Positions 31,341 to 64,000 of a stretch of DNA of 64,000 bases are shown piece after piece (position 1 is the stretch's first letter; each line of letters begins with the position of its first letter). Both the position numbers and the translations under genes were made by a program. Origin of the DNA: Allosphingosinicella sp. (lineage in GTDB: Bacteria; Pseudomonadota; Alphaproteobacteria; Sphingomonadales; Sphingomonadaceae); NCBI GenBank assembly GCA_036491055.1, contig DASXCT010000016.1:982-64981 (forward strand), read 5' to 3'. The notes under the pieces are model-generated. The model had not been told where the DNA came from. It made no database searches and saw only the letters and a list, made by a program, of their open reading frames with translations.

Positions 31341-31693
31341 GGGGGTTGCGAAGACGATTCATTCGATGTGGCGCCGGCATGTCCGGAGCGCCGGCGCGTT
31401 TTTGTCGGCGCGGTCACGGGACGCGCCCGCATCGGATTCCTGGCTTTGCCGGCTCCGAGTGAAGGGCGGATTTGCCGGCGCATCCGGTCGCGCTCCAACC
31501 GAAAGCTGGATCGGTGTTCGAACCTCATGTTCCAGTATCGCATAATAGTTGATCCACATCTCTCCGGGGCGGGGAGCTCGTAGAGCCCGCCGACCCTCCT
31601 TCTCGATTCCAGGCGCTTTTTCCCCTCCACCGCGCTGCGCGCGGTCCCCCTCCCCACGGCGTTCGCCGTGGGGAGAACAAACGTTAGTCTTCC

Positions 31694-32152
31694 ATGGTCG
31701 CAGATTCAGGCTTGCGCGATTTGTGCGTATATCGCATATACCGACTCATGCACATGGAAGTGGATCATTTGGCGGGCGTTCGCGCCGGGATGGCGTTCCG
31801 CGTCTGTTTCGGCGGGTACAGCTTGCACAGGCTGAGGCGGCTGCCGCTGCCGCGCGGCTTGCTGCTGGTGGCGGAGATCCAACGGGCGGTTTGCGATCAT
31901 TATGGGTTGCCGCTGAGGGCGATGACGGTGGCGGGGCGGGCGCGGGAGATGGCGTGGCCGCGGCAGGTGGCGATGTTCCTCTGCCGGGAGCTGACCGGGC
32001 GATCCTTGCCCGACATCGGGCGGCGCTTCGGTGGGCGGGACCATACGACCGTGCTCCATGCTTTGCGCGCCGTCGAGAAAAGGCGGCGGGGCGATGCGGA
32101 GCTCGACCGGGATTTGCGGCTGCTCGCGGCGCGGCTGGAGGGGCGGCGGTGA
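31694..32152 (+). CDS. Stand-alone DnaA C-terminal (domain IV) HTH protein; start uncertain
   Basis: IQRAVCDHYGL..RQVAMFLCRELTGRSLPDIGRRFGGRDHTTVLHA. Confidence 0.9.
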   Translation: MVADSGLRDLCVYRIYRLMHMEVDHLAGVRAGMAFRVCFGGYSLHRLRRLPLPRGLLLVAEIQRAVCDHYGLPLRAMTVAGRAREMAWPRQVAMFLCRELTGRSLPDIGRRFGGRDHTTVLHALRAVEKRRRGDAELDRDLRLLAARLEGRR

Positions 32153-32343
32153 CGGCGACGGGGCTCGACACGCTGCGCAGCGGGCTGAGGAAGGTTCATG
32201 CGGCGGGGGCGCTCGGCTGCGTCCGCGTCGAGCATTGGGCGCGGACGCATGGGCGGTCGCACGAGGAGATCGAGGGGCTGATCGCCGAGATCCGGCTCGA
32301 GGACGCGCTGCGGGTGCGGCCGGAGGCGGAGGTTGAGGAATGA
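32149..32343 (+). CDS. Small hypothetical phage protein
   Basis: GTGA overlap with upstream stop and ATGA overlap downstream (translational coupling). Confidence 0.55.
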   Translation: MTATGLDTLRSGLRKVHAAGALGCVRVEHWARTHGRSHEEIEGLIAEIRLEDALRVRPEAEVEE

Positions 32344-32690
32344 GGGGGGATTCGGGGGGTGCATGTCGGATCGATCCGGCGGGAAAAGTGGGCTCGGCGG
32401 TGCCGCGCGCCGGCCTCTGGCCGGCACCCCCACCCCTTCCCCTCCCCACAAGGGGGAGGGGTTTGGAAAGTTGGAATCACGCGTCTGCCAATTCCGCGAT
32501 CTATGTCCACGGCGGCGGCGCTTGTCCGGTCGATCCCGACTCCGCTGTCCGCGTCACCTTTCGAAATGGGGTGAGCGCGCGTCATGCCTCCCCGGCGCGG
32601 CAGCTTCATTGGGGGCATCGGGGGCGGGACGATGTGTGGGACATCGTGGCTTATGAGAGTCTCGCCGGCGCGGGGCGGGGGCGGCGATGA
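32340..32690 (+). CDS. Hypothetical phage protein carrying an in-frame palindromic repeat
   Basis: HGGGACPVDPDSAVRVTFRNG..W.H..WDIVAY motif recalled from small phage proteins; ATGA overlaps at both ends. Confidence 0.6.
   Translation: MRGDSGGACRIDPAGKVGSAVPRAGLWPAPPPLPLPTRGRGLESWNHASANSAIYVHGGGACPVDPDSAVRVTFRNGVSARHASPARQLHWGHRGRDDVWDIVAYESLAGAGRGRR
32425..32461. repeat. REP-like element family C inside a coding region
   Basis: caccccttcccctccccacaagggggagggg. Confidence 0.65.
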
Positions 32691-33652
32691 GCTTGGCGGG
32701 GGGGTATGTCCGCGTCCATCGCAGCCTGATCGGGCATCCGGCGTTTCGCAACGACGCGGAAGCGATGGCGTTCGCCTGGCTGGTCTGCCGCGCGGCCTGG
32801 CAGCCGGTGGAGCTTCGCTACAAGGGGCGGCTGGTGCGGCTGGGGCGGGGGCAGCTTGCGCTGTCGGTGCGCGATTTCGCCGCCGCCATGGACCGCGACA
32901 AGGGCTGGGCCGAGAGGCTGCTTCGGCGACTCCGCGCGCGGGCCATGGTCGAGACGGAGAAGGGGGCCGGCTCGCTCATCATAAGCATCTGCAATTACGG
33001 GCGATTCCAGGCGGATGAGGCGGCGGCCAAGGCGCCGCGCAAGACGGCGGCCAAGACGGCGGCGGGACGCGGGCGCGACACGGAACAAGGAATCGAAGAA
33101 GGGGAAGAGATTCCCCCTCCGCCCCCGGCGAAGGGGCCGGCGCGGGCTTCGGGCAAGCGGGCCCTTCCGGCCGACTGGCAATTGCCGGCGGTCGAGAGCC
33201 TGACCGACAAGGCGCGCGCCTGCGCCGCCTTGTGGTCGCGGGCGAGCTATGAGGCGGTGGGGGAGGCCTTCGTCTGCTATTGGCGGCGGACCGGGCGGCG
33301 CAATGTCGACTGGCGGCTGACCTTCTGCGGCTGGGTGCTGCGCGAGCATGAAAAGGTGATGCGGAGCGAGCGCTTCGGTGCCGCGCCGCCCGCCGCCGCC
33401 GCCGCGCCGCGGGCGATGGACGCGGAAGAGCGCGCGTCGCTCGCCGCCCTCCACCAGGCGCGCGAGACCATGGCATTCGACGATTGGCACAGGCTGCGCC
33501 AGGCGCATTTTCGGCGCTGGCCGGGCGACGCGGTGCGGCGCGACGCGGGCGGGCGCGCGCGGGCGCTTGCCGACGCGCTGCCGCCGGCGCTGCGGCGCAA
33601 GCGGGCCGGCGGGGCATCCAAAGACGGGCAATCGACGGGGCAGGAGGACTGA
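32687..33652 (+). CDS. Phage replication initiator (lambda O-like / replisome organiser)
   Basis: GGYVRVHRSLIGHP..RGQLALSVRDFA..IISICNYGRFQ N-terminal domain; F..YW..NVDWRLTF C-terminal motif. Confidence 0.75.
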   Translation: MSLAGGYVRVHRSLIGHPAFRNDAEAMAFAWLVCRAAWQPVELRYKGRLVRLGRGQLALSVRDFAAAMDRDKGWAERLLRRLRARAMVETEKGAGSLIISICNYGRFQADEAAAKAPRKTAAKTAAGRGRDTEQGIEEGEEIPPPPPAKGPARASGKRALPADWQLPAVESLTDKARACAALWSRASYEAVGEAFVCYWRRTGRRNVDWRLTFCGWVLREHEKVMRSERFGAAPPAAAAAPRAMDAEERASLAALHQARETMAFDDWHRLRQAHFRRWPGDAVRRDAGGRARALADALPPALRRKRAGGASKDGQSTGQED

Positions 33653-33656
33653 AGAC

Positions 33657-34256
33657 GTGGCGAAACGGACCAAGCGCAAGGTCAAGACGGCGACGCAGCT
33701 CCAGGCGGAGGCCGAGCAGAGGCTGCGCATCCGCGCAGTCGATTCCGGCATTCCCGAGCATCGCGTCGCCGGCGAGCGCATCCGCGATTATGCGCCCGAC
33801 CAGGTGATCGATTTGAGCGGCGAGCTCGGCGGCGGGCGCAACCGGCAATATCAGGTGCTGCGATTGCTCTATCCGACGGTGGTCGACCGCTGGCTGGCCG
33901 AGGGCGGGCCGGGCTTCGAGGAGCCGCAGCGGCGCGCGATCGAGCATTGCCGGGCGCTGTGGACCCGGCTCGGCACGCAGGGGCGGCTGACCGCGCGCTG
34001 GGACGGCGTCGGCGGCGGCCGCGGCGACCGCAACCGCGTGCTCGAGCAGGCCGAGGCCCATGCCGAGATCAGGGGCTATGAGGCGCGGCTGGGCATGCCC
34101 TGGGTGTGGGAGGTGTTCGAGCTGGTCGTCCGCCACGACGAGCCCGCCGGCGCCGCCGCGAGCAAGCTCGCCAGCAACAGCGCCCAGCGGCAGGCGCACG
34201 CCAAGGCCTGCGTGGGGTTCGTGGCGAGCGCGATCGCGATGTGGCGGGGCTATTAG
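33657..34256 (+). CDS. DUF6456-like protein, putative late-gene regulator/antiterminator
   Basis: Position between replication and packaging genes; TVVDRW, LTARW, VFELVVRHDEP..A C-terminal helical motif; family assignment from memory. Confidence 0.6.
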   Translation: MAKRTKRKVKTATQLQAEAEQRLRIRAVDSGIPEHRVAGERIRDYAPDQVIDLSGELGGGRNRQYQVLRLLYPTVVDRWLAEGGPGFEEPQRRAIEHCRALWTRLGTQGRLTARWDGVGGGRGDRNRVLEQAEAHAEIRGYEARLGMPWVWEVFELVVRHDEPAGAAASKLASNSAQRQAHAKACVGFVASAIAMWRGY

Positions 34257-34317
34257 GGCAGATTGGCAAGTACTTGCCAATCGTCATTGGAATTGGTTCT
34301 CCCGATGCTGGGAGCGG

Positions 34318-35463
34318 CTAGGCCGGCTCGGCGGAGATTCCCGCTTCCGGAACAGGCTCGGCCGGCGTTGGCGCAGGCACATTTTCGATAAAGAGGGCTG
34401 CGAGCGGATCATTGATGTAATAATTGCTTCGGCCCGCCCGGTGCTTGGACAACAGCCCCCCGGCGGTGAGCTGGTCAAGGTAGCGGGCGGCCGTCTGCCG
34501 GCTGATGTCCAGTTCCCGCTGCAGGAATTCGATGCGGGTGTAAGGGAATCGGAAGAGGGTGTTGAGCAGATCCTGGGAATAGATCTTCTTGTGGTTCGTG
34601 CGCAGATTGTTCTTATAGTCCCGCATCAGCTCCTTGATGTCGCCGATGAGGCGCAGCGTGTCGATGGAGGTGCTGGTGACGGCCTGGAGCATGTACAGGA
34701 TCCAGCTCTCCCAGTCTCCGGTCTCCCGCACCGCCTGAAGCAGCCGGTAATATTCGCCCTTGTTCGCGGTGATGTAGCGGCTGAGATAGAGGATCGGAAT
34801 CTCTAGCAGCTTCTCGCGCACGAGATAGAGGACGTTGATGATGCGTCCGATCCGACCGTTGCCGTCGGGGAACGGGTGAATGCTCTCGAACTGGTGGTGA
34901 ATGACGGCCATCTTGACGAGGGGATCGAGGTCGCAAAGCGCATCGTCGTTGATGAACCGCTCCAATTTCCCCATCAGGTCCTGGATCGCGTTGGCGTCCT
35001 GCGGCGGGATATAGACGAGCTTGCCGCTGGCTTCGTTCTTCAAGGCGGTTCCCGGCGTCGCGCGATATCCGCCCGTCGTCCGCTTCAGCACCTGGAACAT
35101 CCGGGTGATGGTGTTGTTGGTGAGCAGTCCCTCCTGAGCGCACAAGGCGTCGTGGCCGACCTGGAGCGCGTCCCGGTAAAGCGCCACTTCCTTGGCGGCC
35201 GGCGAGGCGGGGTTTTCGGGGAACAGGCTGACCTGGAACACCTCATCCTGCGTCGTGACGATATTCTCGATCTCCGAGCTCGCCTTCGCTTCCTGGAGGG
35301 CGAGCGTGTCGATGAGGATGCCTTGGTTGGGGATGCCGCCGGCACGGCCCTTCAACTCGGCGAGGTGACGGTGCGCGCGCGCGGCGGCGCGCAGCACGGA
35401 AGGGTTTTCGAGCGCCGCGTTCGGCGGGAGCTCAGGGATCGTATAAGTCGGCTTGAGAGTCAT
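34318..35463 (-). CDS. Fic family protein with N-terminal Fic_N region and C-terminal HTH
   Basis: EAKASSEIEN inhibitory-type motif; HQFESIHPFPDGNGRIGR; SRQTAARYL. Confidence 0.92.
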   Translation of the reverse strand: MTLKPTYTIPELPPNAALENPSVLRAAARAHRHLAELKGRAGGIPNQGILIDTLALQEAKASSEIENIVTTQDEVFQVSLFPENPASPAAKEVALYRDALQVGHDALCAQEGLLTNNTITRMFQVLKRTTGGYRATPGTALKNEASGKLVYIPPQDANAIQDLMGKLERFINDDALCDLDPLVKMAVIHHQFESIHPFPDGNGRIGRIINVLYLVREKLLEIPILYLSRYITANKGEYYRLLQAVRETGDWESWILYMLQAVTSTSIDTLRLIGDIKELMRDYKNNLRTNHKKIYSQDLLNTLFRFPYTRIEFLQRELDISRQTAARYLDQLTAGGLLSKHRAGRSNYYINDPLAALFIENVPAPTPAEPVPEAGISAEPA

Positions 35464-35471
35464 TGCGGCTC

Positions 35472-35500
35472 ATGTTCGCGGAACTGGTTTTTGCGAACAT
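35472..35500. promoter_or_regulatory. Inverted repeat ATGTTCGC-N13-GCGAACAT just upstream of the Fic gene
   Basis: Perfect 8-bp arms 9 bp from the start codon. Confidence 0.45.
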
Positions 35501-35660
35501 ATCATGCATGACGTGTTACAAAAAGTGAAAAATGTTAACACGTCTGGCCGCATATGCTATGCAGGGTGACGCATCTCGAGACCGACTCTCGCAAGCCGTC
35601 ATGCTCGCCCTCGTCGAAAGCTTGCGCTACGCTCCGCTAGCACACAGGGGGAATAGACGC

Positions 35661-36602
35661 ATGAAATCATGGATTTTCGCGCTCGCGGCGGTCGCCGCGT
35701 GGGGATCGGCCGCTTCGGCGCGGACTGGGGCGGCGCCGGCGGTCGCCTATCGGCCGCTGGGGGTGGACGATCTCGGCATCCAGTTCGTCGACGACGGCTC
35801 GGTCCGGAAGGACGGGACGAGCCGGGATTTTTCGATGCTGGTGGTGTTCGCGCACCCGATAGCCGACGATAACGGGGCCGAATTTCTCTATGCGACGCTC
35901 CGGTCGCGGGTCGATTGCGCCGCCGGGACCGAGCAGGACCTCTTCGCAATCTTCCACGCGAAGGACGGCACCGACCAAAGGCCGACCGTCCACCATCCGG
36001 CCGCTTCCCTCCAGCCCGGATCGGTGATGGCGGACGCCGCGGATTATGTGTGCACGGGGAGGCGCAAGGCCGCCGCCGCGGAGGGGCGGGCGATGAGCGA
36101 GGCGGAGGCGGTGCGCGTCGCGACGGGCGCCTTCGCGGTTTCGGCCCCGGCGGCCGGCGCGTCCCAACCCGTCTATCGGTTGCTGGGCGTGACCGATGAG
36201 GATGCCGAGTTTCTCGACCAGGGCTCGATCGCGAAGGACGGAGCGCTCCGGGACTACCGGCTGCTGGTGGTGTGGGCGACGCCCAAGCTCGGGAGCGACG
36301 GCAGGACCGAGCATCCCTTTGCCAAATACCAGGCCCGGATCGACTGCGCCGCGTGGATGTCGAGCCTGCTTTCCATCACCATCTACAGCAGGAGCGGCCC
36401 GGAAAAGCCGATCATCCTTGGCCGGGGCCCGGATCGTCTTGAGCCGGGCTCGGTCGCAGAGACCGGCGCCGACTATCTCTGCAAGGGTAAATTGGCTGCG
36501 CAGATCGCGGGCGCGCCCCTGATCACGGTGGAGGAAGCGGTCCGCTCCGCGACCATGCTTTTCGCGGGACGCAAGGACCGGCGCGGCGCGGGAGGACAGT
36601 GA
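35661..36602 (+). CDS. Exported protein with two tandem about 130-aa surface-adhesin-E-like domains
   Basis: Signal peptide; each domain YR.LG..F.D.GS..DG..R..R.DCAA..PGSV..ADY.C.G. Confidence 0.75.
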   Translation: MKSWIFALAAVAAWGSAASARTGAAPAVAYRPLGVDDLGIQFVDDGSVRKDGTSRDFSMLVVFAHPIADDNGAEFLYATLRSRVDCAAGTEQDLFAIFHAKDGTDQRPTVHHPAASLQPGSVMADAADYVCTGRRKAAAAEGRAMSEAEAVRVATGAFAVSAPAAGASQPVYRLLGVTDEDAEFLDQGSIAKDGALRDYRLLVVWATPKLGSDGRTEHPFAKYQARIDCAAWMSSLLSITIYSRSGPEKPIILGRGPDRLEPGSVAETGADYLCKGKLAAQIAGAPLITVEEAVRSATMLFAGRKDRRGAGGQ

Positions 36603-36705
36603 GCGGCGCGGGGGCTGCGCCGGCTCCGGCGTTTCGCCGTCGACGCGATGCTCGCGCTCTTCGCCGACTTGCGCTAGGCTTCATCGCAAAACGGGGGGCA
36701 GGCGC

Positions 36706-38064
36706 ATGAAAGCGTGGTTTTTGGCGTTCATGGTGTTGGGGGCTTCGGCGGCTGCTGCTGCGGCGCAGTCGAGCGCCTTGCCGGAGGCGCGCTATCGGTT
36801 GATGGGCTACAGGGGCGATGAGGTTCAGTTCCTCGACGAGGGATCCGTCGACACGGACGGGACCAGGCGGGACTTTTCCTCCCTGACGGTGGACTCGGCG
36901 CCCCGGGCCGGCCCGCACGGCCGGCCGGAAGACAGCTATGGCGTGATTCGAAGCCGGATCGATTGCGCCGCGTGGACGGTGCAGCCGCTCTCCGCGCGGG
37001 TCCATTGGCAGAGCGGCCTGGGCGAACGCGTGGCCGCCAATCGAGCGCCCGTGGCCATCCCGGTGAATTCGTTCGCGGAGCTTTTCGCCGATTTTCTCTG
37101 CAAGGGCCGGACGGATTGGCTGATCAGGCGGTCGCATCTGGTCCGCGAAGCGGATGCGGTTCGCTCCGCGCGGCGCTTTTTCTCCGTCCCGACGGCGACG
37201 GACGCGTCGGGAGATTCGCGCTACCGCCTGCTGGATCTCGAGGACGCCGACGCCCAGCTCATCGACGAAAAGTCCATCAAGGAAGACGGCCCGCGCCGGA
37301 AATTCTCGCTGCTGATCATTTGGCCTCAACCCCGGTCCGGGGGAGGGGAAAGCGAGCCCGCCTCTCTCCACGACGAAATCCCGATGCGGGTCGATTGCGC
37401 CGCATGGACGATGCAGACCCTCTCGGGGAGGCCGAATGCGGGAAGCGGCACCGGAACGCCGCTTGTTCATGCCATCCTGCCGGGCTCGGTCGCGGAGACG
37501 GCGGCCGATTATGTCTGCAAGGGCAAGCTGGACCCCGACATCTCGCCGGCGAACGCCGCGAACGAAGCGCAGGCGGTGCGCGGCGCGATGCGTTTCCTCG
37601 CCGTGACGGGTTGGGGAAGCGCGCCGCCGGATCCCGCCTACCGTCTCATCGCCGCGGACGGCGATGCGGCCAATTATCTCGACGAAAGCGCGATCGCGCG
37701 GGCCGGCGCGACCCGGGAATATTGGATTCTGGGGCTGCGGGCAAAGCCCGAACGCGACAGGTACGGCGCCGAACATCCCTATGCGAGGTACCAGCTCCGC
37801 ATCGATTGCGCCGCGTGGACTACGCAGGCGCTCAAGGTGATTCCCTATACGAAGCGCGGGCCGGACCAGCTTGTTTCGCTTGCCGCCGAGCCGCAGCGCA
37901 TCGACCCGGATTCGGCGACGGAGGCCACCGCCAATTTCCTGTGCAAGGGCGAACTCGATCCGGCGATCGCGGCGAGGCACCTGGTCTCGCAGGACGAAGC
38001 GGTGCGCGAGGCGCTGAGCAATTTCGTGGCGGCCGGCCGGCCGCGCGATGCGCGCGGGAGGTGA
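36706..38064 (+). CDS. Exported protein with three tandem surface-adhesin-E-like domains, paralog of the upstream gene
   Basis: Same repeat three times (RIDCAAW ... LCKG); similar signal peptide MKAWF vs MKSWI. Confidence 0.75.
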   Translation: MKAWFLAFMVLGASAAAAAAQSSALPEARYRLMGYRGDEVQFLDEGSVDTDGTRRDFSSLTVDSAPRAGPHGRPEDSYGVIRSRIDCAAWTVQPLSARVHWQSGLGERVAANRAPVAIPVNSFAELFADFLCKGRTDWLIRRSHLVREADAVRSARRFFSVPTATDASGDSRYRLLDLEDADAQLIDEKSIKEDGPRRKFSLLIIWPQPRSGGGESEPASLHDEIPMRVDCAAWTMQTLSGRPNAGSGTGTPLVHAILPGSVAETAADYVCKGKLDPDISPANAANEAQAVRGAMRFLAVTGWGSAPPDPAYRLIAADGDAANYLDESAIARAGATREYWILGLRAKPERDRYGAEHPYARYQLRIDCAAWTTQALKVIPYTKRGPDQLVSLAAEPQRIDPDSATEATANFLCKGELDPAIAARHLVSQDEAVREALSNFVAAGRPRDARGR

Positions 38065-38120
38065 ACGGGGCGGCCACCGGAACAACCCAGGTTGCCGCCG
38101 CGACCCTTCGCGAAAAGGCG

Positions 38121-38149
38121 GTTGACAACGTAATGCCGACCTGCTAGGA
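38121..38149 (+). promoter_or_regulatory. Putative sigma70 promoter for the late operon
   Basis: TTGACA-17 bp-TAGGAA preceded by GC, in the gap before the co-oriented late genes. Confidence 0.45.
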
Positions 38150-38422
38150 AGGTCATACTCGCTAGAGTTGCGCCTGACGGGCAGAGGGGAAATCCCCCGG
38201 GCAGCCGCGGCGCCGGCTCCGGCCTCTTTCATCCCTACGATGATCTTCCTATGCCGTGCCGCGCGTTCCTTCCCTGCGCGCGTGCGCGGTGCCGCCCGCA
38301 CCCCCGACGCACCTTCCGAACGCCAAGAGCGCTTGTCACCGCTGAGGCGAGGTTTGCGGGCGGCATAAAATCCCGGCCCCTGTCACGTCCGGCCGAAATC
38401 CAGCCAGCCCAGGAGAGTCCCG

Positions 38423-38813: not shown

Positions 38814-38845
38814 GAGCGGAGAGGGGGCTTCGTGCGGGCCTCAGG

Positions 38846-38894
38846 CCCCCCTCCACCGCCGTTCCGGCGGTCCCCCTCCCCGTCCCGGGGAGGA
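38846..38894 (+). repeat. REP-like element family A (inside prophage)
   Basis: cccccctccaccgccgttccggcggtccccctccccgtcccggggagga. Confidence 0.85.
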
Positions 38895-40827: not shown

Positions 40828-40852
40828 GGAGTCGCCGCGGGCGGGGCTCAGG

Positions 40853-40901: not shown

Positions 40902-40931
40902 TGAAGGCCGACCAGCCCGAAAGGGAGCCGG

Positions 40932-55666: not shown

Positions 55667-57412
55667 ATGGACCAATGGACCCAGCGTTTCGCCGACATCA
55701 AGGACCAACTCTCCCAGTCCGGCCTCAACGCCGCCCAGCAAGGCCAGGCGCTGAGCGGCTGGGTGGCGGCCAATCCGCGGCCGGCCAATGCGGCGCCGCC
55801 GCCGATGCTTTCGGGCGATGCCCTTGCCGGCGCGCCGGCCGGCCCGATGAGCGCGGCGACCGCTTCCGCACCGCCGCCCTTGTTGCCCCAAATGGCGGCG
55901 AGTCCCGCGGCGAAGCCCGCGCCGGCGCTTGCGCCCAATGTCGCGCCGGTGCCTTTGCCCAGGCCGCCGGCCAACGCGCCGGTTCTGCCGCCGGCCCTTG
56001 CCCCGGCCGCGCCGGGCCTTGGCGCGTCACTGGCCATGCCGCCGCTCGGCGGGCCGAACCTGGCGCGGGCGCCGATCGTCTCGGCCGACGCGCCGATCGC
56101 CGCGTCGCCCTTGCTGTCGCCGACGCCGATCCTGCCGCGGGCACCGCTTATTCCGCAGGTGCCGCCCCCGACCGCGCCGGCCGTGCCGGCGGCGCCTTCC
56201 GTGGCGAACATGCGCGTCGGCGCGCCGGTCCAGGCTTCGTCGCCCGCGCCGGTCGTGCCCGCGCCGAAGCCCGCCGCCATCCCCGCCGCGCCGCTCCCGT
56301 CGCCCGCGCTTATTCGTCCGGCCGCCTCGCCGGCGCCGGCGCCGCTGCCGGTGCAGCCGAGCCCGGCGCCGGCGCCGCCCATGCCCAGGCCAATTTTGTC
56401 GCCGACGCCGGCGCCGCTGCCGGCCCCGCTGCCGGCGGGCGGGCCGAACGCGGCGAACCAGAACGAGAGCTCGAACATCGACGCGCGCGTCAACGCGATC
56501 CTGGCCCGCAACAACGCGCCTTCTCCGCCATCGCCAACGCTCCCTCCGCCTCCGCCGCCGCGGCCGGCCCCGGCGCCCCCGCCGGTCCCGGTCGTGCCGC
56601 CGCTTCCGAAGCCGGTTCCTGCTCCGGTGGCTCCGGTGGCGCCCGCGCCGCCGCCGGCCGCAATGCCCATGCCGCCGGCGCCGCCTCTTGTGGCCCCGCC
56701 GGCTCCGGTCGTCGCGCATCCGGTTCCGGCGCCGCCCGTGCCTGTGCCCGCGCCCGCTCCGGTGCCGAAGCCGGTGCTTCCGCCGGCGCCGCCGCCGATG
56801 CTGCCTTCGGCGCCGATCGTGAGCGTGCCGCCGCCGCCTCTGCCCAGGCCGCCGGTGAGCGCGCCGGTGCTTCCGCCCGCGCCGCCGCCGCCTCCGCCGC
56901 CCCGGCCGGCGCCGATGCCCCCGCCGATGCCGGCCGTGCCGCCACCGCCCGGAACGCCGTCGACGCCGGCGACGATCGCGCCGTTGCCGACCCAGATGCC
57001 GACCGTGTCGACGATGTCGCCGGCGCCCAAGGCTCCCGCCACCGCGAACATCGACACCCATGTCAATGCGCCGACCCAGGTTTCGCTGCCCGTCTATCAG
57101 CCGCCGGCTCTGCCCTCCTTCCTCGACGGCGGGCTGATCCCGAGCTTCACCGGCTACACGCCGGCGCCGTCGATGCCGGGCTATGCGATGCCGCGCACCG
57201 GCCACCCGTTCGCGCCGACGCCCGCCGCCCAGAATGCGCCGCTGCTGCCGGGCTTCAACAACCCGTTCGTCGGGGCGGCCGGGGGCGGCGGCGGGATCGC
57301 TTATGGGGTTGGGGGCGCGATCGCCGGCACCGGCTACGATCCGAGCGATCCGACGGGGCTGGGGGCGCTTTACGGCCAGCTGCTGGTGCCGAAGATCACG
57401 CCGCAGGTTTAG
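55667..57412 (+). CDS. Extremely Pro/Ala-rich protein in the ejection-protein position
   Basis: ATG directly after the upstream TAG; CCG-dominated Pro codons; non-repetitive N- and C-terminal caps. Confidence 0.65.
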   Translation: MDQWTQRFADIKDQLSQSGLNAAQQGQALSGWVAANPRPANAAPPPMLSGDALAGAPAGPMSAATASAPPPLLPQMAASPAAKPAPALAPNVAPVPLPRPPANAPVLPPALAPAAPGLGASLAMPPLGGPNLARAPIVSADAPIAASPLLSPTPILPRAPLIPQVPPPTAPAVPAAPSVANMRVGAPVQASSPAPVVPAPKPAAIPAAPLPSPALIRPAASPAPAPLPVQPSPAPAPPMPRPILSPTPAPLPAPLPAGGPNAANQNESSNIDARVNAILARNNAPSPPSPTLPPPPPPRPAPAPPPVPVVPPLPKPVPAPVAPVAPAPPPAAMPMPPAPPLVAPPAPVVAHPVPAPPVPVPAPAPVPKPVLPPAPPPMLPSAPIVSVPPPPLPRPPVSAPVLPPAPPPPPPPRPAPMPPPMPAVPPPPGTPSTPATIAPLPTQMPTVSTMSPAPKAPATANIDTHVNAPTQVSLPVYQPPALPSFLDGGLIPSFTGYTPAPSMPGYAMPRTGHPFAPTPAAQNAPLLPGFNNPFVGAAGGGGGIAYGVGGAIAGTGYDPSDPTGLGALYGQLLVPKITPQV

Positions 57413-57450
57413 GGGGCGGCGCCGTCAGCGGGTTTGCTTCCACCTCCCGT

Positions 57451-57525
57451 CACCCTCACCCAACTTCGCCTAGGCTCCTTCGTCGCCAAGGCTTCGTATC
57501 CCTCTCCCCTCAAGGGAGAGGGGGG
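57451..57525. repeat. REP-like element family C
   Basis: caccctcacc..ccctctcccctcaagggagaggg. Confidence 0.7.
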
Positions 57526-57565
57526 TTTCACCCGCCTTCACGCAATCCTTTGACCGGAGGACCCG

Positions 57566-60500
57566 ATGGGCCTTTCTTCTTCTTCGTCCAACTCGACGAG
57601 CAACCAGCAGACCAATCAGACCGCCACGACCACCCCGGTCGCGCCGTCCTGGCTGACCCAGGGGCTGCAAAATTATGTCGGGTCGATCGGCAGCTTCGCC
57701 GATTCCGATCCGAACAGCTTCGTCGCCGGCGCCTCGCCGCTCGAGCAGCAGGCGTATAACAATGCCGACGAGCTTGGCGGGCTCAACAACAATTTCAGCA
57801 CCGCGTCCAAGATCGCGCTCGGCGTCGCCAACGCGCCGGCGAGCACGGTCCCGTCCGCCTCCGGCTACGGCGCCGCGCAGGGGGGGGTGTCGACCTATAA
57901 TCCGGCGACCTTGTCCAACCCGTTCGCGGCGGGCGCCAGCGGCTATAATGCCGCCCAGACGACCGGCACCTCTTATTCGGCGCCGACCTTCACGCCGGTC
58001 AATGTCGGGGCGGGGCTGGATCTCAATGGATTTTCGCCATCCTCATCGTCCTCGTCCGGATCCTCGCCGTTCACGATCACGCCTTTCTCCTCGACCTCGC
58101 CGCAATCGATCACCGCCGGCGGTTCCATTCCGCAGCCGCTGACCGCCAATCCGAACGCCGCGCAGGGCGGCTCCTTCACCCTCTCGCCCTTCTCGGCGAC
58201 GTCGCCACAGGCGGATTTCAACGCGGCTTCGTCCTCGGCCATTCCCTATGCTTTGACCTCGGCCTCGGGCTACAATTCAGCCAATGCCGCGGCGACCGGC
58301 TATGCCGCGCCCAATCTCGGCGCGGCGAGCCAGGCGGCCGGCGCCGGCTACAATGCCGCCACCGCCAATTCCTCGGGCTATGCGGTGCCGTCGCTCGCCA
58401 ATGCGGCGCTTGCCACCGGCACCGGCTTCAACGCCGCGCTCGCCAATGCATCGGGCTATGCCGCGCCCAATCTCGGCGCGGCGAGCCAGGCGACCGGCGC
58501 CGGCTACAATGCCGCCAATGCCGCCGCCGCCGGCTATGCGGTGCCGTCGCTCGGCGCCGCGAGCCAGGCGACCGGCGCCGGCTACAATGCCGCCAACGCG
58601 GCCGCGAACGGCTATTCGGTGGCGTCGCTCGGCAATGCCGCGCTCGCTTCGGGCCAGGGCTATAATGCCGCGCAGGCGGGGCCGGTGACGATCGCGCCGG
58701 CCGCCAATGCGGCCGCGTCCAACGCCCAGGCGGCGAGCCTGCTCACCAACCTCAATGGCTACATGAACCCCTATCTCGGCCAGGTCGTCAACGCGAGCAT
58801 GGCCGATTTCGACCAGAATGCCGCCGTGCAGCAGGCCCAGCTCAAGGCGCAGGGCGCGGCCGCCGGCGCCTTCGGAGGATCGCGCTTCGGAGTCGCCCAG
58901 GCGAGCCTGGACGACGATCTCGCCCGCGCCCGCGCCACCACCGAATCCGGCCTCCTCTCCAACGCCTTCAACACTGCGGCCGGCCTTTCCCAGTCGGACG
59001 CCGCCAACCGCCAGCAGGCGAGCCTGTTCAACGCCCAGAACCAGACCGGCGTATCGCAGGCCAATGCCGCCGCCGCCAACCAGCGCGCGCTCAGCCAGGC
59101 GCAGCTCAGCGCCCAGCTCGGCCTCGCCAACCAGTCCGCGACCAACCAGGCGTCGGAGTTCGGTGCCAATGCGCAGAACGCGGCGAGCCTCGCCAACCAG
59201 TCGGCGAACAACCAGTTCGCGCTCACCCGCGCCGGCATGCAGAATGACGAATCCCAGTTCGCCGCCTCCGCGCAGAACCAGGCCTCGCTCGCCAATGCCG
59301 CCGCCGCCAACCAGGCCGGCCAGTTCGGCGCCAATGCGCAGAATGCGGCGAGCCTCGCCAACCAGTCGGCGAACAACCAGTTCGCCTTGACCCGTGCGGG
59401 CATGCAGAATGACGAGGCGCAATTCGCCGCCGGCGCGCAGAACCAGGCCTCGCTCGCCAATGCCGCCGCCGCCAACCAGGCCGGCCAGTTCGGCGCCTTG
59501 GCGAGGAACAATGCCAGCCTCGCCAACCAATCGGCCAACAACCAGTTCGCCCTGACCCGCGCCCAGCAGCAGGCCGACGCCTCGCAATTCGGGGCGGCGG
59601 CGCAGAACCAGGCGGCGCTCGCCAACGCCTCGGCGCGCAACCAGGCGAGCCTGTTCAACGCCCAGGCGACCAATGCCGCCGGCCTTTCCAACCAGAGCGC
59701 GCTCAACCAGTTCGCCCTGACCCGCACCGGCATGCAGAACGACCAGGCGCAATTCGCGGCTTCGGCGGCGAACCAGGCCGCGCTCGCCAATGCGGCGTCG
59801 CGTAACCAGGCAGCGCAGTTCGGCGCGACGGCCCAGAATAATGCCAGCCTCGCCAACCAGTCCGCCAACAACCAGTTCGCGCTGACCCGGGCCCAGCAGC
59901 AGGCCGACGCCTCGCAATTCGGGGCGTCGGCGGCGAACCAGGCGGCGCTCGCCAATGCGGCGGCGGCCAACCAGGCGGGCCAGTTCGGCGCGGCGGCGCG
60001 CAACACCGCCAGCCTCGCCAACCAGGGCGCCGTCAACCAGATCGGGCTCGCCCAGGCGCAGATGCAGAACGACGCCGCCAAATATGGGGCGGATACGGCG
60101 AACCAGATGGCGCTCGCCAATGCCGCCGCGCAGAACCAGGCGGCGCAGTTCGGCGCGACGGCGCTGAACAATGCCGGCCTCGCCAACCAGAGCGCCGGCA
60201 ACCAGTTCGCGCTCGCCCAGGCGCAGATGCAGAACGACGCCTCGCAGTACAATGCGACCGCCAACAATGCGTCGATGCAGGCCTATCTCGCCGCGCTCAA
60301 CCAGTCGGCGCAGTTCAACGCGGGCGCGCAGAACCAGGCGAGCCTGTTCAACGCCCAGCAGAATGAGGCCGGGCTCGCCCGCCAGCTCCAGGCGGCCAAT
60401 GCGCTCAGCCAATATGGCAGCGATTACGGCACCAACACCCGCGCGGATCTGGGCGCGATGTCGCAGCTCGGCGCCCAGCAGCAGCAGATCGAGCAGGCTT

Positions 60501-60700
60501 ATGCCCTGGCGCCGCTCGCCCAGCTCCAGGCGGTCGGCCAATTGTTCGGCGCGACGCCCTACCAGGCGCTGATCGGGCAGACGATCAACACCAACGGCAC
60601 CAGCAGCGGGACGAGCTCGACTACCACGACACCGAGCCTGTTCTCGATGCTCATGCAGGCGGGCCAGAACGCGGCTAATGCCTATGCGGCGGGGGCTTGA
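57566..60700 (+). CDS. DNA ejection (transfer) protein with 26-aa and 55-aa tandem repeats
   Basis: MGLSSSSS N-terminus, YMNPYLGQVV and GAFGGSRFGV motifs typical of podoviral ejection proteins; Asn/Gln/Ala repeats. Confidence 0.8.
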   Translation: MGLSSSSSNSTSNQQTNQTATTTPVAPSWLTQGLQNYVGSIGSFADSDPNSFVAGASPLEQQAYNNADELGGLNNNFSTASKIALGVANAPASTVPSASGYGAAQGGVSTYNPATLSNPFAAGASGYNAAQTTGTSYSAPTFTPVNVGAGLDLNGFSPSSSSSSGSSPFTITPFSSTSPQSITAGGSIPQPLTANPNAAQGGSFTLSPFSATSPQADFNAASSSAIPYALTSASGYNSANAAATGYAAPNLGAASQAAGAGYNAATANSSGYAVPSLANAALATGTGFNAALANASGYAAPNLGAASQATGAGYNAANAAAAGYAVPSLGAASQATGAGYNAANAAANGYSVASLGNAALASGQGYNAAQAGPVTIAPAANAAASNAQAASLLTNLNGYMNPYLGQVVNASMADFDQNAAVQQAQLKAQGAAAGAFGGSRFGVAQASLDDDLARARATTESGLLSNAFNTAAGLSQSDAANRQQASLFNAQNQTGVSQANAAAANQRALSQAQLSAQLGLANQSATNQASEFGANAQNAASLANQSANNQFALTRAGMQNDESQFAASAQNQASLANAAAANQAGQFGANAQNAASLANQSANNQFALTRAGMQNDEAQFAAGAQNQASLANAAAANQAGQFGALARNNASLANQSANNQFALTRAQQQADASQFGAAAQNQAALANASARNQASLFNAQATNAAGLSNQSALNQFALTRTGMQNDQAQFAASAANQAALANAASRNQAAQFGATAQNNASLANQSANNQFALTRAQQQADASQFGASAANQAALANAAAANQAGQFGAAARNTASLANQGAVNQIGLAQAQMQNDAAKYGADTANQMALANAAAQNQAAQFGATALNNAGLANQSAGNQFALAQAQMQNDASQYNATANNASMQAYLAALNQSAQFNAGAQNQASLFNAQQNEAGLARQLQAANALSQYGSDYGTNTRADLGAMSQLGAQQQQIEQAYALAPLAQLQAVGQLFGATPYQALIGQTINTNGTSSGTSSTTTTPSLFSMLMQAGQNAANAYAAGA
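58268..58657 (+). repeat. Five 78-bp (26-aa) coding tandem repeats
   Basis: GYNAANAAAAGYAVPSLGAASQATGA and variants. Confidence 0.9.
59159..60313 (+). repeat. Seven 165-bp (55-aa, 5 x 11-aa) coding tandem repeats
   Basis: FGANAQNAASL ANQSANNQFAL TRAGMQNDESQ FAASAQNQASL ANAAAANQAGQ; register holds exactly from ttc 59159 to ttc 60314. Confidence 0.92.
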
Positions 60701-60701
60701 A

Positions 60702-61295
60702 ATGGCAGGATTGTTCGACACATCATCGCCGCAACAGCAGCACGGCTTCGACTGGGGCTCGGCCGCGCTCGGCTTCTTCGGCGTGCCGGCGAGCCTCATC
60801 CAGGCGCACAAGAAGCGCAAGGCGGAGCAGCAGCAACAGCAATTGATCTTCAACGCGATCGACAATGATCCGAACCTCAGCGACGGCCAGCGCGCCATCG
60901 CCAAGCTCTATCCGGGCGCCTACGCCCAGAGCCAGCTGCAGAATCTCGGCCCCGCAATGCCGGCGGCGAGCGGCGGCTACGCCGTCGCCAATGCGAATCC
61001 TTCGACCGCCAATTACCTGCCCGCGGGCCCGCCGGCGATGGCGATGGGCGCCATCGATCCGACGATGGGCCAGCCGCTCGGCGCGGCCACCGATTCGTCC
61101 TCGATCCCGTTCGGCTGGGGCGATGGGACGGCGATCGGCGGCGCGACCGCTTCGGTCGTGCCGCTGACCGACCAGGATGTTTCGGGCATGGATCAGACCG
61201 GCGGCTACGATCCCTATGGCGGCTATGGCAGCAGCTACGGTTTCGACAGCGATTACGGCAACGGCAGCAGCGACGGCGGCTTTGCCGATTTCTAG
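60702..61295 (+). CDS. Putative ejection protein
   Basis: Starts 1 bp after the upstream stop; Gly/Asp/Tyr-rich tail. Confidence 0.65.
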   Translation: MAGLFDTSSPQQQHGFDWGSAALGFFGVPASLIQAHKKRKAEQQQQQLIFNAIDNDPNLSDGQRAIAKLYPGAYAQSQLQNLGPAMPAASGGYAVANANPSTANYLPAGPPAMAMGAIDPTMGQPLGAATDSSSIPFGWGDGTAIGGATASVVPLTDQDVSGMDQTGGYDPYGGYGSSYGFDSDYGNGSSDGGFADF

Positions 61296-61409
61296 TCGGT
61301 AAGTCGCACCCGCCCAAGGCAGGCCTGCGGCCCTTTTCACGACCATCATCAAGCTTCGCAGCCGGGCCGTCCCGCCCGCCATGCGGATCAATCCCCAGGA
61401 GGACGATCA

Positions 61410-63578
61410 ATGGCCTATCAGGACGGCGATTCCAGGACCTATGGCGGCGTCACCTATCTGCGCCAGGACGGCCTCTGGTATCCGCAGCCCGATCCCGTGC
61501 TCGCGGCCGCCCAAGGCGGCGATGGCGGCGCGCCCGGCGATGGCAGCCAGGGCAACGCGCCCGATGCGTCGGCGCAGGCCGATCCCGACCAGCTCACCGG
61601 TCAGATCGCCCAGGTCAAGGACCAGTTCGTCAACGCGACCGATCCCGGCCAGAAGGTCAACGCGCTGTGGCAACTCGGCTCACTGATCATGGCGGCGAGC
61701 CAGCAGCCGCAGCAGGGCGGGGGAAGCGACGGCAGCGGCGGTTCAACCGGCAATCCGCCACAGCCGGCCGCGCTTTTCCAGCCGGGGCAGAACCAGCAGA
61801 ATCCGCCGCCCTTCATTGCCGGGCTGTCCGGCGCGCCCGACGACCCGGCCGGCGCGCTCCAGCAGCTCGGCGCGCCGCAGGGATCGGATGACGGCGGCAA
61901 CGGCACTGCGCAGCCGCCGCTGCCCCCGCCGCTCCTCGGCCAAGGTTCCGACAATGACGGCAACGACGGATCGGGCATTCCCCTCCTACCGTCCGATCAG
62001 CAGGGTCCGCCGCCGTTCATAGCGGGGCTTCCGGGCGCGCCCGGCGATGTGGCCAGCGCCCTGCAGCAGCTCACCACCCAGCAGGGCGCGACGGCTCCGG
62101 GTCTCGGCGGCGGCAACGGTCCGCAGCCACCCGCCTCCTTGTTCGCTGCCGGCGGGCCAGGCGGCACGAGCGGCGGAGCGCAGTCCGGCGGTCTGTTCGG
62201 CGCGCCAAGCCAGTCCGCCGGGCCGCCGCTGCCGCCGGACCAGCAGAACCCGCCGCCCTTCGTCGCGGGACTTCCCGGCGCACCCGGCGACGTAGCCAGC
62301 ATCCTCCAGCAGCTCGGTACGCCGCAAGGGGCAGGGGCTTCCGGCGACGGGCCGGACGCGCCGCAGCCGCCGGGCTCGTTGCCCGTCACCAATGCACCCG
62401 GCACCGGGAGCGACGATCAGCAGCAGCCCGGCGGCTTGCTTGGCATGCCGGGCCAGCCCGTCGTACCGCAGGCGCCCGCGCCGGGAGGGCCGGGCCCCCA
62501 GGGAAGGCCGCCTTTCATCCTGGCCTCCGCGCAGCAGCCCTTCCAGCCGAATGGCTTGCCGCCCGGTGGCGCTTTTCCAGGGCAGGGTGCCCGCGGTTCC
62601 CAACCCCCTTTTGGCGGCGCACCTGCCGGATTCCGTCTGGCTTCGCTGGATTCGCCGTCGGACGGACAGGCGGTCCTGCGGACCTACGGCTCTCCATTGG
62701 ATCCGGTTCTTGGGCCGCCGGCCAGCATCGCCCGCGCGCCGATCAAGGGTGCGCCGGCAGCAACTGCGACGCGGCAACCGACAGCCGCGCCAGGAGCGGC
62801 CACCCCCCAGCCGGCACAGGACCCGTTGCATGCCGAGTATAATTTTCAAGCCAACACCAACCTGGCGGTGGGGAGCAGTAAACTCACTCCAGATCAGAAA
62901 GCCGACCGCATCTATCAGATTGCGAAGCAACGCGGCCGCCCACTCGATCCGCACATGCGGCCGTGGCTCAAGGGCCACGCAAACGCGCCGATGATCGGGA
63001 ACATGCACATCGGGGAAGTCATCTCGCTCGCCCAGCGGGGCACCAGATTACGCAACCGGCTGATGCAGTTCGGATTCACTCCCGCCGCCGCGGCAGCGAT
63101 GGCGGCCAACGCGATGGTGGAAAGCTATGGCTATTATCGGTCTCCACAGCTGAGTGGCGGACCCGGCTATGGCCTCTGGCAATGGTCGCCTTATCGGCGG
63201 GGCTTATACGAAACGCTGAAGAAAAAGCAGAACAAAACGCTAAAGCAAAATCAGGACGTAAGCTTCTCAGCTGCTAATGAGGATGACCAGATCCGGTTCA
63301 TGATCTGGGAAATGCAGAATCAGCACCCCTACCATGATGCGTGGGCGGCGCTGCACTCCAATCAGAGTGCGGGGCAGATGGCGGCCAAGGTCGCAATGGA
63401 TTACGAAGGAATGGCGAACAAGACGGGAGATCCCGAAAAACGGGCCGCAATCGCGGATCTGCTGAGCAGCATTCCCGTCGATCCTCGGATGAATCTGGCC
63501 GCGCCGTCGAGTCCGCCACCGGAGGTCGACGCCTTTCTGCGGCGCAAGGCTGCCAGTGCGCGGTCAGTCGGGCGCTGA
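61410..63578 (+). CDS. Ejection protein with low-complexity N-terminus and C-terminal phage-tail-lysozyme-like domain
   Basis: FGFTPAAAAAMAANAMVES..GPGYGLWQW..RR..DQIRFMIWEM..DYEG matches the Phage_lysozyme2 pattern; three PPPF.AGL.GAP.D.A..LQQL repeats. Confidence 0.8.
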   Translation: MAYQDGDSRTYGGVTYLRQDGLWYPQPDPVLAAAQGGDGGAPGDGSQGNAPDASAQADPDQLTGQIAQVKDQFVNATDPGQKVNALWQLGSLIMAASQQPQQGGGSDGSGGSTGNPPQPAALFQPGQNQQNPPPFIAGLSGAPDDPAGALQQLGAPQGSDDGGNGTAQPPLPPPLLGQGSDNDGNDGSGIPLLPSDQQGPPPFIAGLPGAPGDVASALQQLTTQQGATAPGLGGGNGPQPPASLFAAGGPGGTSGGAQSGGLFGAPSQSAGPPLPPDQQNPPPFVAGLPGAPGDVASILQQLGTPQGAGASGDGPDAPQPPGSLPVTNAPGTGSDDQQQPGGLLGMPGQPVVPQAPAPGGPGPQGRPPFILASAQQPFQPNGLPPGGAFPGQGARGSQPPFGGAPAGFRLASLDSPSDGQAVLRTYGSPLDPVLGPPASIARAPIKGAPAATATRQPTAAPGAATPQPAQDPLHAEYNFQANTNLAVGSSKLTPDQKADRIYQIAKQRGRPLDPHMRPWLKGHANAPMIGNMHIGEVISLAQRGTRLRNRLMQFGFTPAAAAAMAANAMVESYGYYRSPQLSGGPGYGLWQWSPYRRGLYETLKKKQNKTLKQNQDVSFSAANEDDQIRFMIWEMQNQHPYHDAWAALHSNQSAGQMAAKVAMDYEGMANKTGDPEKRAAIADLLSSIPVDPRMNLAAPSSPPPEVDAFLRRKAASARSVGR

Positions 63579-63914
63579 ATACCATGCCCAATTGTGGTTC
63601 CTCCGGCACGGAAGCCAATAGAGTTCGAGCTCCAGTGCGCGGTCGTCACGCGAGCCCCAGCACCAGCCTAATCGGTGCGCCTCGTGCAGCAGGCGATCTC
63701 GGCGTGCGCAGGTGCGTTTGATGACAGCCTCGTCGTAGGTTGAACCACATTGCAGGGCTGCGACTGCAACCCGATGGATGATGACATGCGCCCGCCCGGA
63801 GCGTGGCGCTCCAGTTTCCGAAATGCAGCACGCCGCCGCCGGCGCGGCAAGCAAAGTTGTGGCTGCGAGGAACAGGAAAAACCGCGTCGCCCTTTGTGAC
63901 AATGCAATCCTCAT
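63564..63914 (-). CDS. Small exported Cys-rich protein convergent on the lysozyme gene; candidate inhibitor/immunity protein
   Basis: Signal peptide, six Cys, paralog of 45463..45774; 15-bp 3' overlap with the lysozyme gene. Confidence 0.78.
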   Translation of the reverse strand: MRIALSQRATRFFLFLAATTLLAAPAAACCISETGAPRSGRAHVIIHRVAVAALQCGSTYDEAVIKRTCARRDRLLHEAHRLGWCWGSRDDRALELELYWLPCRRNHNWAWYSAPD

Positions 63915-64000
63915 AACCACTATCCCTTCTTGCCGGCCCGTCATCTGTCGCCGAACCGACGTACTTTATTATCAGGGACCTGCTTCTGGAACAATAGAAG

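Follow-up and report, generated by a model that had tools for sequence, protein, structure and literature searches.

A phage-derived cluster with a P22-type head lies in the chromosome of a soil sphingomonad, Allosphingosinicella sp., from 31.5 to 64 kb of the window, the 64,000-nucleotide stretch of DNA analysed here. It contains packaging, head, tail and ejection modules, with TerL, a P22-type portal and coat, a scaffold, an adaptor, fibres and internal proteins. The left neighbour of the element is a host PLD gene (29451-31340; Pfam PF13091), and the first element gene (31694-32152) starts 353 bp after its stop codon, a gap that the original prediction had put at about 350 bp. The junction between the two (31341-31693) holds a copy of the REP A repeat (31607-31670), and conservation with a sister MAG starts at 31512 and runs rightward. 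The element has a minimum size of 32.5 kb. The window closes 0.4 kb past the last structural gene and 56 bp past the immunity-type gene imm2; the source contig is 65,589 bp long and Logan contigs reach only 48-89 nt beyond 64000. Read depth in the source metagenome is even over host and element, at about 26x, without alternative junctions.

The packaging and head genes are encoded on the forward strand. A 95-residue candidate small terminase (40932-41219) is assigned by position only; its homologues precede TerL in the related contigs L014 and L015, it has no Pfam match and it is unrelated to the Sf6-type terS of the phage-like contig L056. The large terminase TerL (41364-42632; Terminase_3, E 1e-29) is 96% identical in amino acid sequence to that of the sister MAG, with a dN/dS of 0.08. 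It is followed by a P22-type portal (42873-44948; P22_portal PF16510, E 5e-184, 590/594 model positions; dN/dS 0.19 against the sister MAG), a scaffolding protein (46059-46925; phrog_3927, E 9e-32), a P22-type coat (47174-48370; P22_CoatProtein PF11651, E 3e-35, full length; 97% identity to the sister MAG, dN/dS 0.11) and a head-to-tail adaptor (48433-49074; SU10_adaptor, E 4e-12). With a P22-family portal, a P22-family coat and a separate scaffold, this is a P22-type head module. Alignments of TerL, portal, scaffold, coat and adaptor with relatives cover the full length and show no frameshift or stop, in agreement with the predicted lack of frameshifts from the terminase onward. The cluster had been called intact; its packaging, head, tail and ejection machinery is, but the element is not pristine, as there is a truncated lysozyme2 gene remnant (45163-45435, forward strand); convergent with the remnant is imm1, a small Cys-rich lipoprotein gene (45463-45774, reverse strand). 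No Pfam or PHROG match to the P22 tail machine (gp4, gp10, the gp26 needle and the gp9 tailspike) was found in the element. With an SU10-type adaptor and none of these proteins detected, the tail is not P22-like.

Next to the adaptor is a variable tail-fibre module (49085-53666), identified through PHROG tail-fibre matches and containing a 222-nt direct repeat, D8. It consists of fib1 (49085-49954), p121 (49982-50347), fib2 (50344-51207) and fib3 (52213-53028), with genes X1 (51225-52004) and X2 (53004-53666) on the reverse strand; the GC3 of X1, 0.48, points to recent gene exchange. A 487-residue virion structural protein (53678-55141; phrog_3287, E 1e-43) and a 123-residue protein follow on the forward strand (53678-55666), a pair that is syntenic in L018, L012 and others. 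Downstream of the virion protein come four large low-complexity proteins and then a 722-residue protein. The candidate internal or ejection proteins in this region (55667-61295, forward strand) include a Pro-rich protein of 581 residues, an Ala/Asn/Gln-repeat protein of 1044 residues and one of 205 residues; they are long intact ORFs with homologues in L018 and carry the tandem repeats D1 and D3. The 722-residue protein (61410-63578, forward strand) has a C-terminal tail-lysozyme domain (Phage_lysozyme2, E 1.5e-20), and its gene is convergent with imm2 (63564-63944, reverse strand), which encodes a Cys-rich lipoprotein-like protein (phrog_25984; family alignment A1).

At the left end, the first gene (31694-32152, forward strand) encodes a 152-residue protein with a DnaA domain IV helix-turn-helix (Pfam Bac_DnaA_C, E 7e-28; PDB 1j1v, E 3e-19; dN/dS 0.20 against the sister MAG). 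From its sequence it is a candidate activator or origin binder, and L056 has a homologue upstream of terS. On the same strand are a conserved 64-residue ORF (32149-32343; 93% identity to the sister MAG, dN/dS 0.10), a 321-residue O/DnaD-like replication initiator (32687-33652; phrog_2514, phrog_1408 and phrog_345; 86% identity, dN/dS 0.24) and a 199-residue protein with no Pfam match (33657-34256; 97% identity, dN/dS 0.10). Cargo genes encode a Fic-family protein (34318-35463, reverse strand; Fic_N, Fic and SoFic-like_C; phrog_5978; dN/dS 0.16) and two Adhesin_E-repeat proteins (35532-36602 and 36706-38064, forward strand; PF16747) with internal repeats D10, D14 and D15 and a dN/dS of about 0.47. 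A 66-residue protein (38610-38810, forward strand) is the first gene of the core common to all close relatives and is 62-68% identical in L014 and L015, where it lies directly upstream of terS. Here it is followed by a segment (38833-40902) with a REP A copy on each side that encodes a beta-rich protein of 611 residues, p611 (38992-40827, forward strand), for which there was no family match in Pfam or PHROG and a structure prediction of pLDDT 30. The sister MAG lacks the whole segment and has a single REP there instead.

Integrase, recombinase, cI/Cro-type repressor, holin and endolysin gave zero Pfam or PHROG matches in the scanned ORFs of the 31.5-64 kb region, which bears out the prediction that no integrase, repressor or lysis genes are in view, and they were also not found among the host-side ORFs scanned. 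For integrase and recombinase this holds for the ORFs scanned across 1-64000, and no tRNA gene was found in the window. Because the right end of the element lies beyond the window, their absence from view says nothing about that end, and an integrase or repressor could be situated past a lysis cassette, right of 64000. In relatives the holin and endolysin genes follow those of the internal proteins, a position that would fall right of 64000 here, and in the closest relatives the lysis genes are succeeded by host genes without an integrase. At the left end, where a cI/cro block upstream of replication had been noted as missing, no repressor/Cro switch was found and the host PLD gene occupies that spot; a more complete comparator contig has a cI/cro-like HTH pair upstream of DnaA_C in its place, with assignments that score below Pfam thresholds. 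The order in the phage-like contig IMGVR_UViG_3300033069_000713 is divergent HTH pair, methylase, ParB-like gene, DnaA_C, NusG-like gene, terS and late genes.

The REP family A core, GGTCCCCCTCCCC, is present in 11 copies against 0.2 expected, five on the host side and six in the element (31643, 38869, 40876, 42660, 42739 and 42803), the last three between TerL and portal (42660-42846). REP C-like hairpins occur at 32442, 41330, 46959/47060 and 57504; Logan contigs of run X1 break at the first of these (32402-32463), and those between scaffold and coat (46950-47080) are found in the sister MAG too. The predicted host REPs inside the packaging and head operon are thus located in the terS-TerL, TerL-portal and scaffold-coat gaps. 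The repeats are short, palindromic, intergenic, multi-copy and common to the host and element sides, as is characteristic of REPs and REPINs, their density in the element equals that in the host flank, and read depth spikes 10-fold at them. No cognate RAYT transposase was found in the window. A different Allosphingosinicella contig carries Y1_Tnp genes. REPINs are reported to be vertically inherited, slow replicators (10.1101/2022.05.22.493013; 10.1101/2024.10.14.618302). The codon style is also like that of the host, as had been proposed, with an RSCU correlation of 0.953 and a GC3 of 0.874 in the host and 0.831 in the element.

In a sister genome, the Allosphingosinicella MAG SMAG_U1427, the same element adjoins the same PLD gene. 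Window positions 31512-57100 are covered by three contigs of this MAG, the left one with the PLD gene, which are broken at REPs, around the REP C hairpin at 32402-32463 (L001/L113) and at the REP A cluster at 42660-42846 (L113/L011). At least five REP sites are orthologous between the two genomes and are therefore older than the split. Pooled dS is 0.270 for the element core (14 genes) and 0.320 for the flanking host (five genes), and the core has a dN/dS of 0.24 over 12.6 kb, with no stop codon in its 14 genes where about 106 nonsense changes would be expected under neutrality. The dS of the head genes, 0.16-0.20, is below that of the host genes, 0.27-0.44, and the fibre genes reach 0.7-1.06, a mosaic that is also typical of live phages. 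With one sister genome only, the shared locus could reflect site-specific integration. The expectations of synteny and of selection are borne out in this pair, and the idea of a long-resident, host-controlled particle system gains partial support from the shared locus, the purifying selection, the dS near that of the host and the orthologous REPs. The predicted loss of autonomy is itself partial: no integrase is in view, but the DnaA-domain-IV protein and the O/DnaD-like initiator have been retained under purifying selection.

The closest clade, L014/L112 and L015/L110, consists of late-region-only elements from two other species with 72% portal identity. Both host flanks can be seen, formed by the same host genes in the two species, and integrase, repressor and replication genes are all missing. 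In these relatives dS is 0.15-0.40 for the element and 0.23-0.36 for the flanks, a divergence that matches the host, and the selection pattern is like that of the window and its sister. The chromosomal copies group as a single clade in the portal tree. At deeper divergence the flanking genes change, and one relative, L153, is visibly decaying, with a truncated coat gene; both observations would also be expected if prophages had been grounded repeatedly. Related phage contigs are 37-44 kb long, and in L123 an HTH gene lies just past the lysis genes.

Like RcGTA and CcGTA, the element is a phage-derived cluster for packaging, head and tail with no integrase in view; it co-diverges with its host under purifying selection, and one sister genome has it at the same locus. 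Upstream there is a gene for a small DnaA-like HTH protein, and GafA and GafY of GTAs use a DnaA-like DNA-binding domain (PMC9638019). Unlike these GTAs it has a podoviral architecture, which includes a P22-type head and is not homologous to RcGTA. A search for RNA or virome runs found none. As for self-propagation, it has no integrase in view but does retain the O/DnaD-like initiator and DnaA_C, and L015 and L014 have none of these. No CtrA box was found; neither CtrA nor alphaproteobacterial LexA boxes occur in the element above chance. Its capsid, judged by the P22-type coat and the 37-44 kb contigs, probably holds DNA of at least the length of the locus, unlike classical GTAs. With P22-like phages the element shares portal, coat, scaffold and headful-type terminase, but the adaptor is SU10-type, homologues of gp10, gp26 and gp9 were not detected, int, xis, c2 and cro are not in view and no lysis genes precede terS. 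In P22 itself, in situ replication and lateral transduction from the integrated prophage are documented (PMC8575938). An orthologous locus across species, a missing lysogeny module and purifying selection on the remaining phage genes are features that the element has in common with grounded defective prophages, from which it differs by keeping an entire virion module (more than 20 genes) and a replication initiator and by the host REPs in its late operon. The source for such domesticated or grounded prophages is reportedly Bobay, Touchon and Rocha in PNAS in 2014. A review is also available (PMC6379469).

The element looks like a retained particle-making element, for which gene transfer is only a candidate activity. 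We consider it most likely, with a probability of about 0.55, to be a grounded prophage, maintained by selection, from a family of temperate podoviruses with P22-type heads. A less probable but serious alternative would be an ordinary, still inducible temperate podophage, with lysis, integrase and immunity genes right of the window and either the same att site used twice or an active prophage inherited. The gene order of the relatives does place lysis genes there, 32.5 kb plus such genes nears the size of the related phage contigs, replication-type genes are present, every gene is intact and has a dN/dS below 1, the low head dS and mosaic fibres are compatible with it, and in L123 an HTH gene comes directly after the lysis genes. 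The HTH pair of the family, however, lies upstream of DnaA_C and not after the lysis genes, it would be unusual for an att site to fall between cro and the replication genes, and the closest relatives run from lysis genes into host genes with no integrase. The host-like REP density, the orthologous REP sites, the near-host dS and the even depth without alternative junctions likewise argue against it.

It would seem improbable that the locus encodes a killer particle, a PBSX-like phibacin that delivers a peptidoglycan hydrolase to competitors with the producer lineage shielded by the convergent lipoprotein. PBSX, the Bacillus defective prophage, likewise has a fixed place in the chromosome, encodes particles and cannot transmit itself, but it belongs to an unrelated lineage and has a myovirus-like architecture, small heads and a repressor of its own. 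Such a role would fit the lysin cassettes, which are polymorphic in the family (Phage_lysozyme2, VgrG3-like_C), saturated in dS and each accompanied by either LprI or a small secreted Cys-rich protein, and the orphan immunity genes that both the window and L153 retain beside truncated lysin genes. Ordinary podoviruses, however, also have lysin domains on ejection proteins, prophage-encoded inhibitors can serve superinfection exclusion, and the heads, terminase and portal, all retained, would be needless for a pure killing device. More improbable still is an inert, slowly decaying remnant without current function, as might be suggested by the lack of an integrase or repressor in view, the truncated lysozyme2 gene, the presence or absence of the p611 segment between the sisters, the repeat expansion in the 1044-residue gene and the truncated coat gene of L153. 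This reading is already disfavoured by the selection tests, in the absence of stops and the dN/dS across the core, and by the same pattern in the second species pair.

If the element is a grounded prophage, the missing lysogeny and immunity segment (integrase, early-left operon and cI/cro) would correspond to what lies upstream of the DnaA-domain-IV gene in related phages. Since then the element would have passed down vertically as part of the chromosome in two or more Allosphingosinicella-like species, with selection presumably preserving the function of the whole particle-making machinery. A host-controlled signal may turn on the DnaA_C-type HTH protein, upon which the O-like initiator and the 199-residue protein would fire in situ replication with no excision. 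The terminase would then begin headful packaging at a chromosomal pac site near terS and run rightwards through the late genes into downstream host DNA, filling T=7 P22-type heads of roughly 40 kb, in the style of lateral transduction and not in the random style of GTAs. Lysis would depend on a holin/endolysin cassette expected just right of 64000, and the virion lysin with its convergent periplasmic lipoprotein could provide protection of kin cells.

More speculatively, and we regard this as doubtful, the family may constitute an undescribed Sphingomonadales class of domesticated podoviral particle systems with P22-type T=7 heads, present in several stages of reduction and serving as a dedicated lateral-transduction platform with polymorphic lysin/immunity cassettes. 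If so, the stages of reduction would be represented by this copy, which has kept the DnaA_C, initiator and 199-residue genes, and by the late-region-only L015 type, and the platform would combine in situ replication with directional headful packaging of the downstream chromosome.

The phage-derived element adjoins a host flank (1-31340) of ordinary chromosomal or accessory genes, encoding among others an NRPS-like enzyme, a cellulase, a GH3 hydrolase, a TonB-dependent receptor and patatin-like and PLD-like proteins, in which neither a tRNA gene nor, among the scanned ORFs, an integrase was found. The PLD gene stops 353 bp short of the first element gene, matching the gap of about 350 bp given in the original prediction. 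The window, with a G+C content of ~67%, was drawn from a 65,589-bp metagenome contig, and read depth in the source metagenome is equal across host and element (~26x), with no alternative junctions seen. At 26353-31340 the patatin-like gene (927 aa) adjoins the PLD-like gene (629 aa), and the two are possibly a defence-type pair. The closest homologues of the PLD protein outside the sister genome described below are in Beijerinckiaceae, Acidobacteriaceae and Paraburkholderia (54-66% identity), so that the flank is itself accessory DNA. A host repeat family based on GCAGAGACGCAGAGA, at 7005-7041, 8728-8756 and 26072-26292, is confined within the window to the host side.

The element genes (31694-63944) lie almost entirely on the plus strand. 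The first, at 31694, codes for a DnaA-domain-IV protein (DnaA_C) and is followed by a 64-aa ORF, by the genes for an O/DnaD-like replication initiator and a 199-aa protein and, on the minus strand, by Fic. Next come two genes for Adhesin_E-repeat proteins and one each for proteins of 66 aa and 611 aa, the latter beta-rich. The 95-aa candidate terS then precedes TerL and the P22-type portal, after which lie a remnant of a lysozyme2 gene and, convergent with it, a small lipoprotein gene. Scaffold, P22-type coat and SU10-type adaptor genes lead to the variable fibre module, and the remaining products are a 487-aa virion protein, four large proteins of low complexity and a 722-aa protein with a terminal tail-lysozyme domain, followed by a second convergent lipoprotein gene. 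The core genes align to those of relatives over their full length without frameshifts and codon usage is host-like (RSCU r = 0.953, host versus element), both as had been predicted, although the truncated lysozyme2 gene 3′ of the portal qualifies the claim of an intact cluster and the replication-type genes qualify the original account of the element. The ORF at 48015-48770 was ruled out as a gene by a dN/dS of 2.4, and the N-terminal part of the ORF at 32340-32690, which overlaps a host palindromic repeat (REP), is doubtful.

The candidate terS matches no family and does not resemble the Sf6-type terS of the phage-like contig L056, and we therefore do not claim a GTA-like TerS lacking the DNA-binding domain. 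For the 611-aa protein the PDB sequence search was empty and the structure model uninformative (pLDDT 30). No phage genome close at the DNA level was found, the 722-aa protein was unmatched among phage records, and the portal is carried by only a 4.2-kb Logan contig. Scans for CtrA boxes, LexA boxes, promoters, terminators and Rfam families gave nothing above chance. A 1044-aa protein, with in-frame tandem repeats of 78 nt (58257-58646) and 165 nt (seven copies, 59113-60402), is about double the size of the homologues in relatives (473-485 aa). The fibre module contains a tandem duplication (50344-53666) of a unit comprising a fibre gene on the plus strand and a glycosyltransferase-like gene on the minus strand. 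Homologues of the minus-strand X genes of this module are on the plus strand in L015, a contig with a late-region-only relative, and the GC3 of only 0.48 suggests that X1 is a recent acquisition.

The genome nearest to the window is that of Allosphingosinicella sp. SMAG_U1427, a MAG from soil, with ~85% nucleotide identity in the flanking host genes. In the synteny check proposed with the original prediction, this sister genome proved to hold the same element beside the same PLD gene, on three contigs whose breaks fall exactly at REPs. The first (L001) has the PLD gene, an extra glycosyltransferase gene and the DnaA_C gene, the second (L113) corresponds to 32513-42698 without the REP-bracketed 611-aa segment, and the third (L011) to 42855 to ~57100. 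Both genomes share the cargo genes (Fic, adhesin-like) and at least five REP sites. By Nei-Gojobori estimates, dS between the two is 0.27-0.44 for five host genes (pooled 0.320) and 0.270 pooled over 14 element core genes, with values of 0.7-1.06 for the fibre genes and X2. Pooled dN/dS of the element core, also put forward as a check, is 0.24, and its 12.6 kb of coding sequence contains no stop codons against ~106 nonsense differences expected under neutral drift. The gap between portal and scaffold (44949-45981; 2180-3490 of L011) is a cargo hotspot with lineage-specific contents. The window has a lysin remnant and an immunity-type gene there, the sister MAG has unrelated DNA of 58% GC, and L014 and L015, contigs from two other species, carry complete lysin/immunity and VgrG3_C/LprI cassettes.

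Host REPs were indeed found inside the element, including the terS-TerL, TerL-portal and scaffold-coat gaps. Of the 11 copies of the REP A core (chance expectation 0.2), six are within the element, and C-type hairpins lie at four further gaps. This colonisation offers an independent clock of residence time. The gene for the 611-aa protein lies between two direct REP A copies (38833-40902) and is exactly missing from the sister MAG, where a single REP is present, as if REPs had mediated a deletion or an insertion.

The portal belongs to a large family, in which the chromosomal copies closest to the window group as a single clade by neighbour joining. In two species (GCA_028293025.1 and GCA_034668705.1) a ~23-kb version of the element runs from the 66-aa gene and terS to four small ORFs located 3′ of the holin and endolysin genes. 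It is flanked on the right in both by host genes (MarR, EmrA, MFS, ICMT) and on the left by Flp-pilin, PilZ and other non-phage genes, and no integrase, repressor or replication gene was found in either copy. Between this pair, dS is 0.15-0.40 for the element and 0.23-0.36 for the flanks, with dN/dS of 0.05-0.36. A third lineage (L153) is a decaying copy, in which the coat gene breaks off at residue 183 and the tail genes are missing. The 200-aa lipoprotein-like ORF at 25379-25981, for which no Pfam match was found, is 60% identical to a gene immediately beside this copy, perhaps a sign of an ancient neighbourhood or of cargo common to both. L125 was rejected as a relative, being an unrelated siphovirus with the endolysin as the sole shared gene.

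A serious rival, if on balance the less likely one, is that the element is an ordinary prophage truncated by the end of the window. The window ends 56 bp past the last gene, so the absence of modules at the right carries no meaning. Logan contigs of the source run end 48-89 nt beyond 64000, the right end of the sister copy was not found in searches with the 722-aa and 1044-aa proteins, and exact-protein look-ups for window proteins near the right end returned no record. Of the integrase, repressor and lysis genes originally listed as absent, none, holin and endolysin included, is detectable in view; in relatives, holin and GH24 endolysin genes come after those for the internal proteins, so that a lysis cassette is expected just beyond the window and the lack of lysis genes is best explained by the position of the window edge. 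At the left end, the early gene order of the family can be read from a more complete, 40.9-kb phage-like contig, where an early-left operon is followed by two divergent HTH genes (weak matches, cI-like and Cro-like), a methylase, ParB-like, DnaA_C and NusG-like genes, an Sf6-type terS and then the late genes. Compared with this layout the window element begins at DnaA_C, and the place expected for the switch is taken by a host gene. The comparator phage contig yielded no integrase in 38.8 of its 40.9 kb. The best reading is that the element is a grounded prophage, which has lost its lysogeny module and since then been kept by selection, because the co-divergence, the shared REPs and the state of the closest relatives all point there.

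Lysin genes of the Phage_lysozyme2 or VgrG3-like_C type are always paired with a convergent gene for a small secreted protein, either LprI or a member of a rare Cys-rich family. In the latter, small lipoprotein-like proteins with 63 representatives among 1.84 billion proteins, a GWCWGS motif and four cysteines are invariant. Members are found in the window (45463-45774 and 63564-63944, both on the minus strand), in L014 (13571-13903 and 16807-17145) and in L153 (7008-7316 and 15205-15450), always convergent with a lysozyme2-domain gene. Orphan copies are kept beside truncated lysin genes, which suggests an immunity or inhibitor role, and the pairing looks like an effector/immunity arrangement for superinfection exclusion or kin protection. 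In L010, an Allosphingosinicella metagenome contig, the region 5157-11230 holds two homologues (627-650 aa) of the 722-aa lysin protein that have no phage surroundings. Their neighbours are LysR and dehydrogenase genes, with Y1_Tnp (RAYT/IS200-like) transposase genes interspersed.

As a proposed mechanism, a host trigger may activate the grounded prophage through the DnaA_C protein, the retained initiator would then replicate it in situ, directional headful packaging would start near terS, and lysis would follow. This proposal takes its cues from GafA/GafY, whose DNA-binding domain is DnaA-like (PMC9638019), and from lateral transduction by P22 (PMC8575938). On present evidence the element is not a classical GTA, since its head is probably full size and its initiator is retained. 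To our knowledge, all genetically characterised GTAs have undersized heads and are unrelated to P22-type podoviruses. Were the element no more than a normal prophage that runs past the end of the window, its value would be in annotation only. Should its activity be demonstrated, the element would combine a fixed place in the chromosome with a P22-type head of full size and a replication initiator that has been kept, while lacking excision genes, and would be a natural case of lateral transduction become a host function. It would also provide a graded series, from complete phage through the window element and the late-only element to the decayed copy, for the study of prophage domestication.
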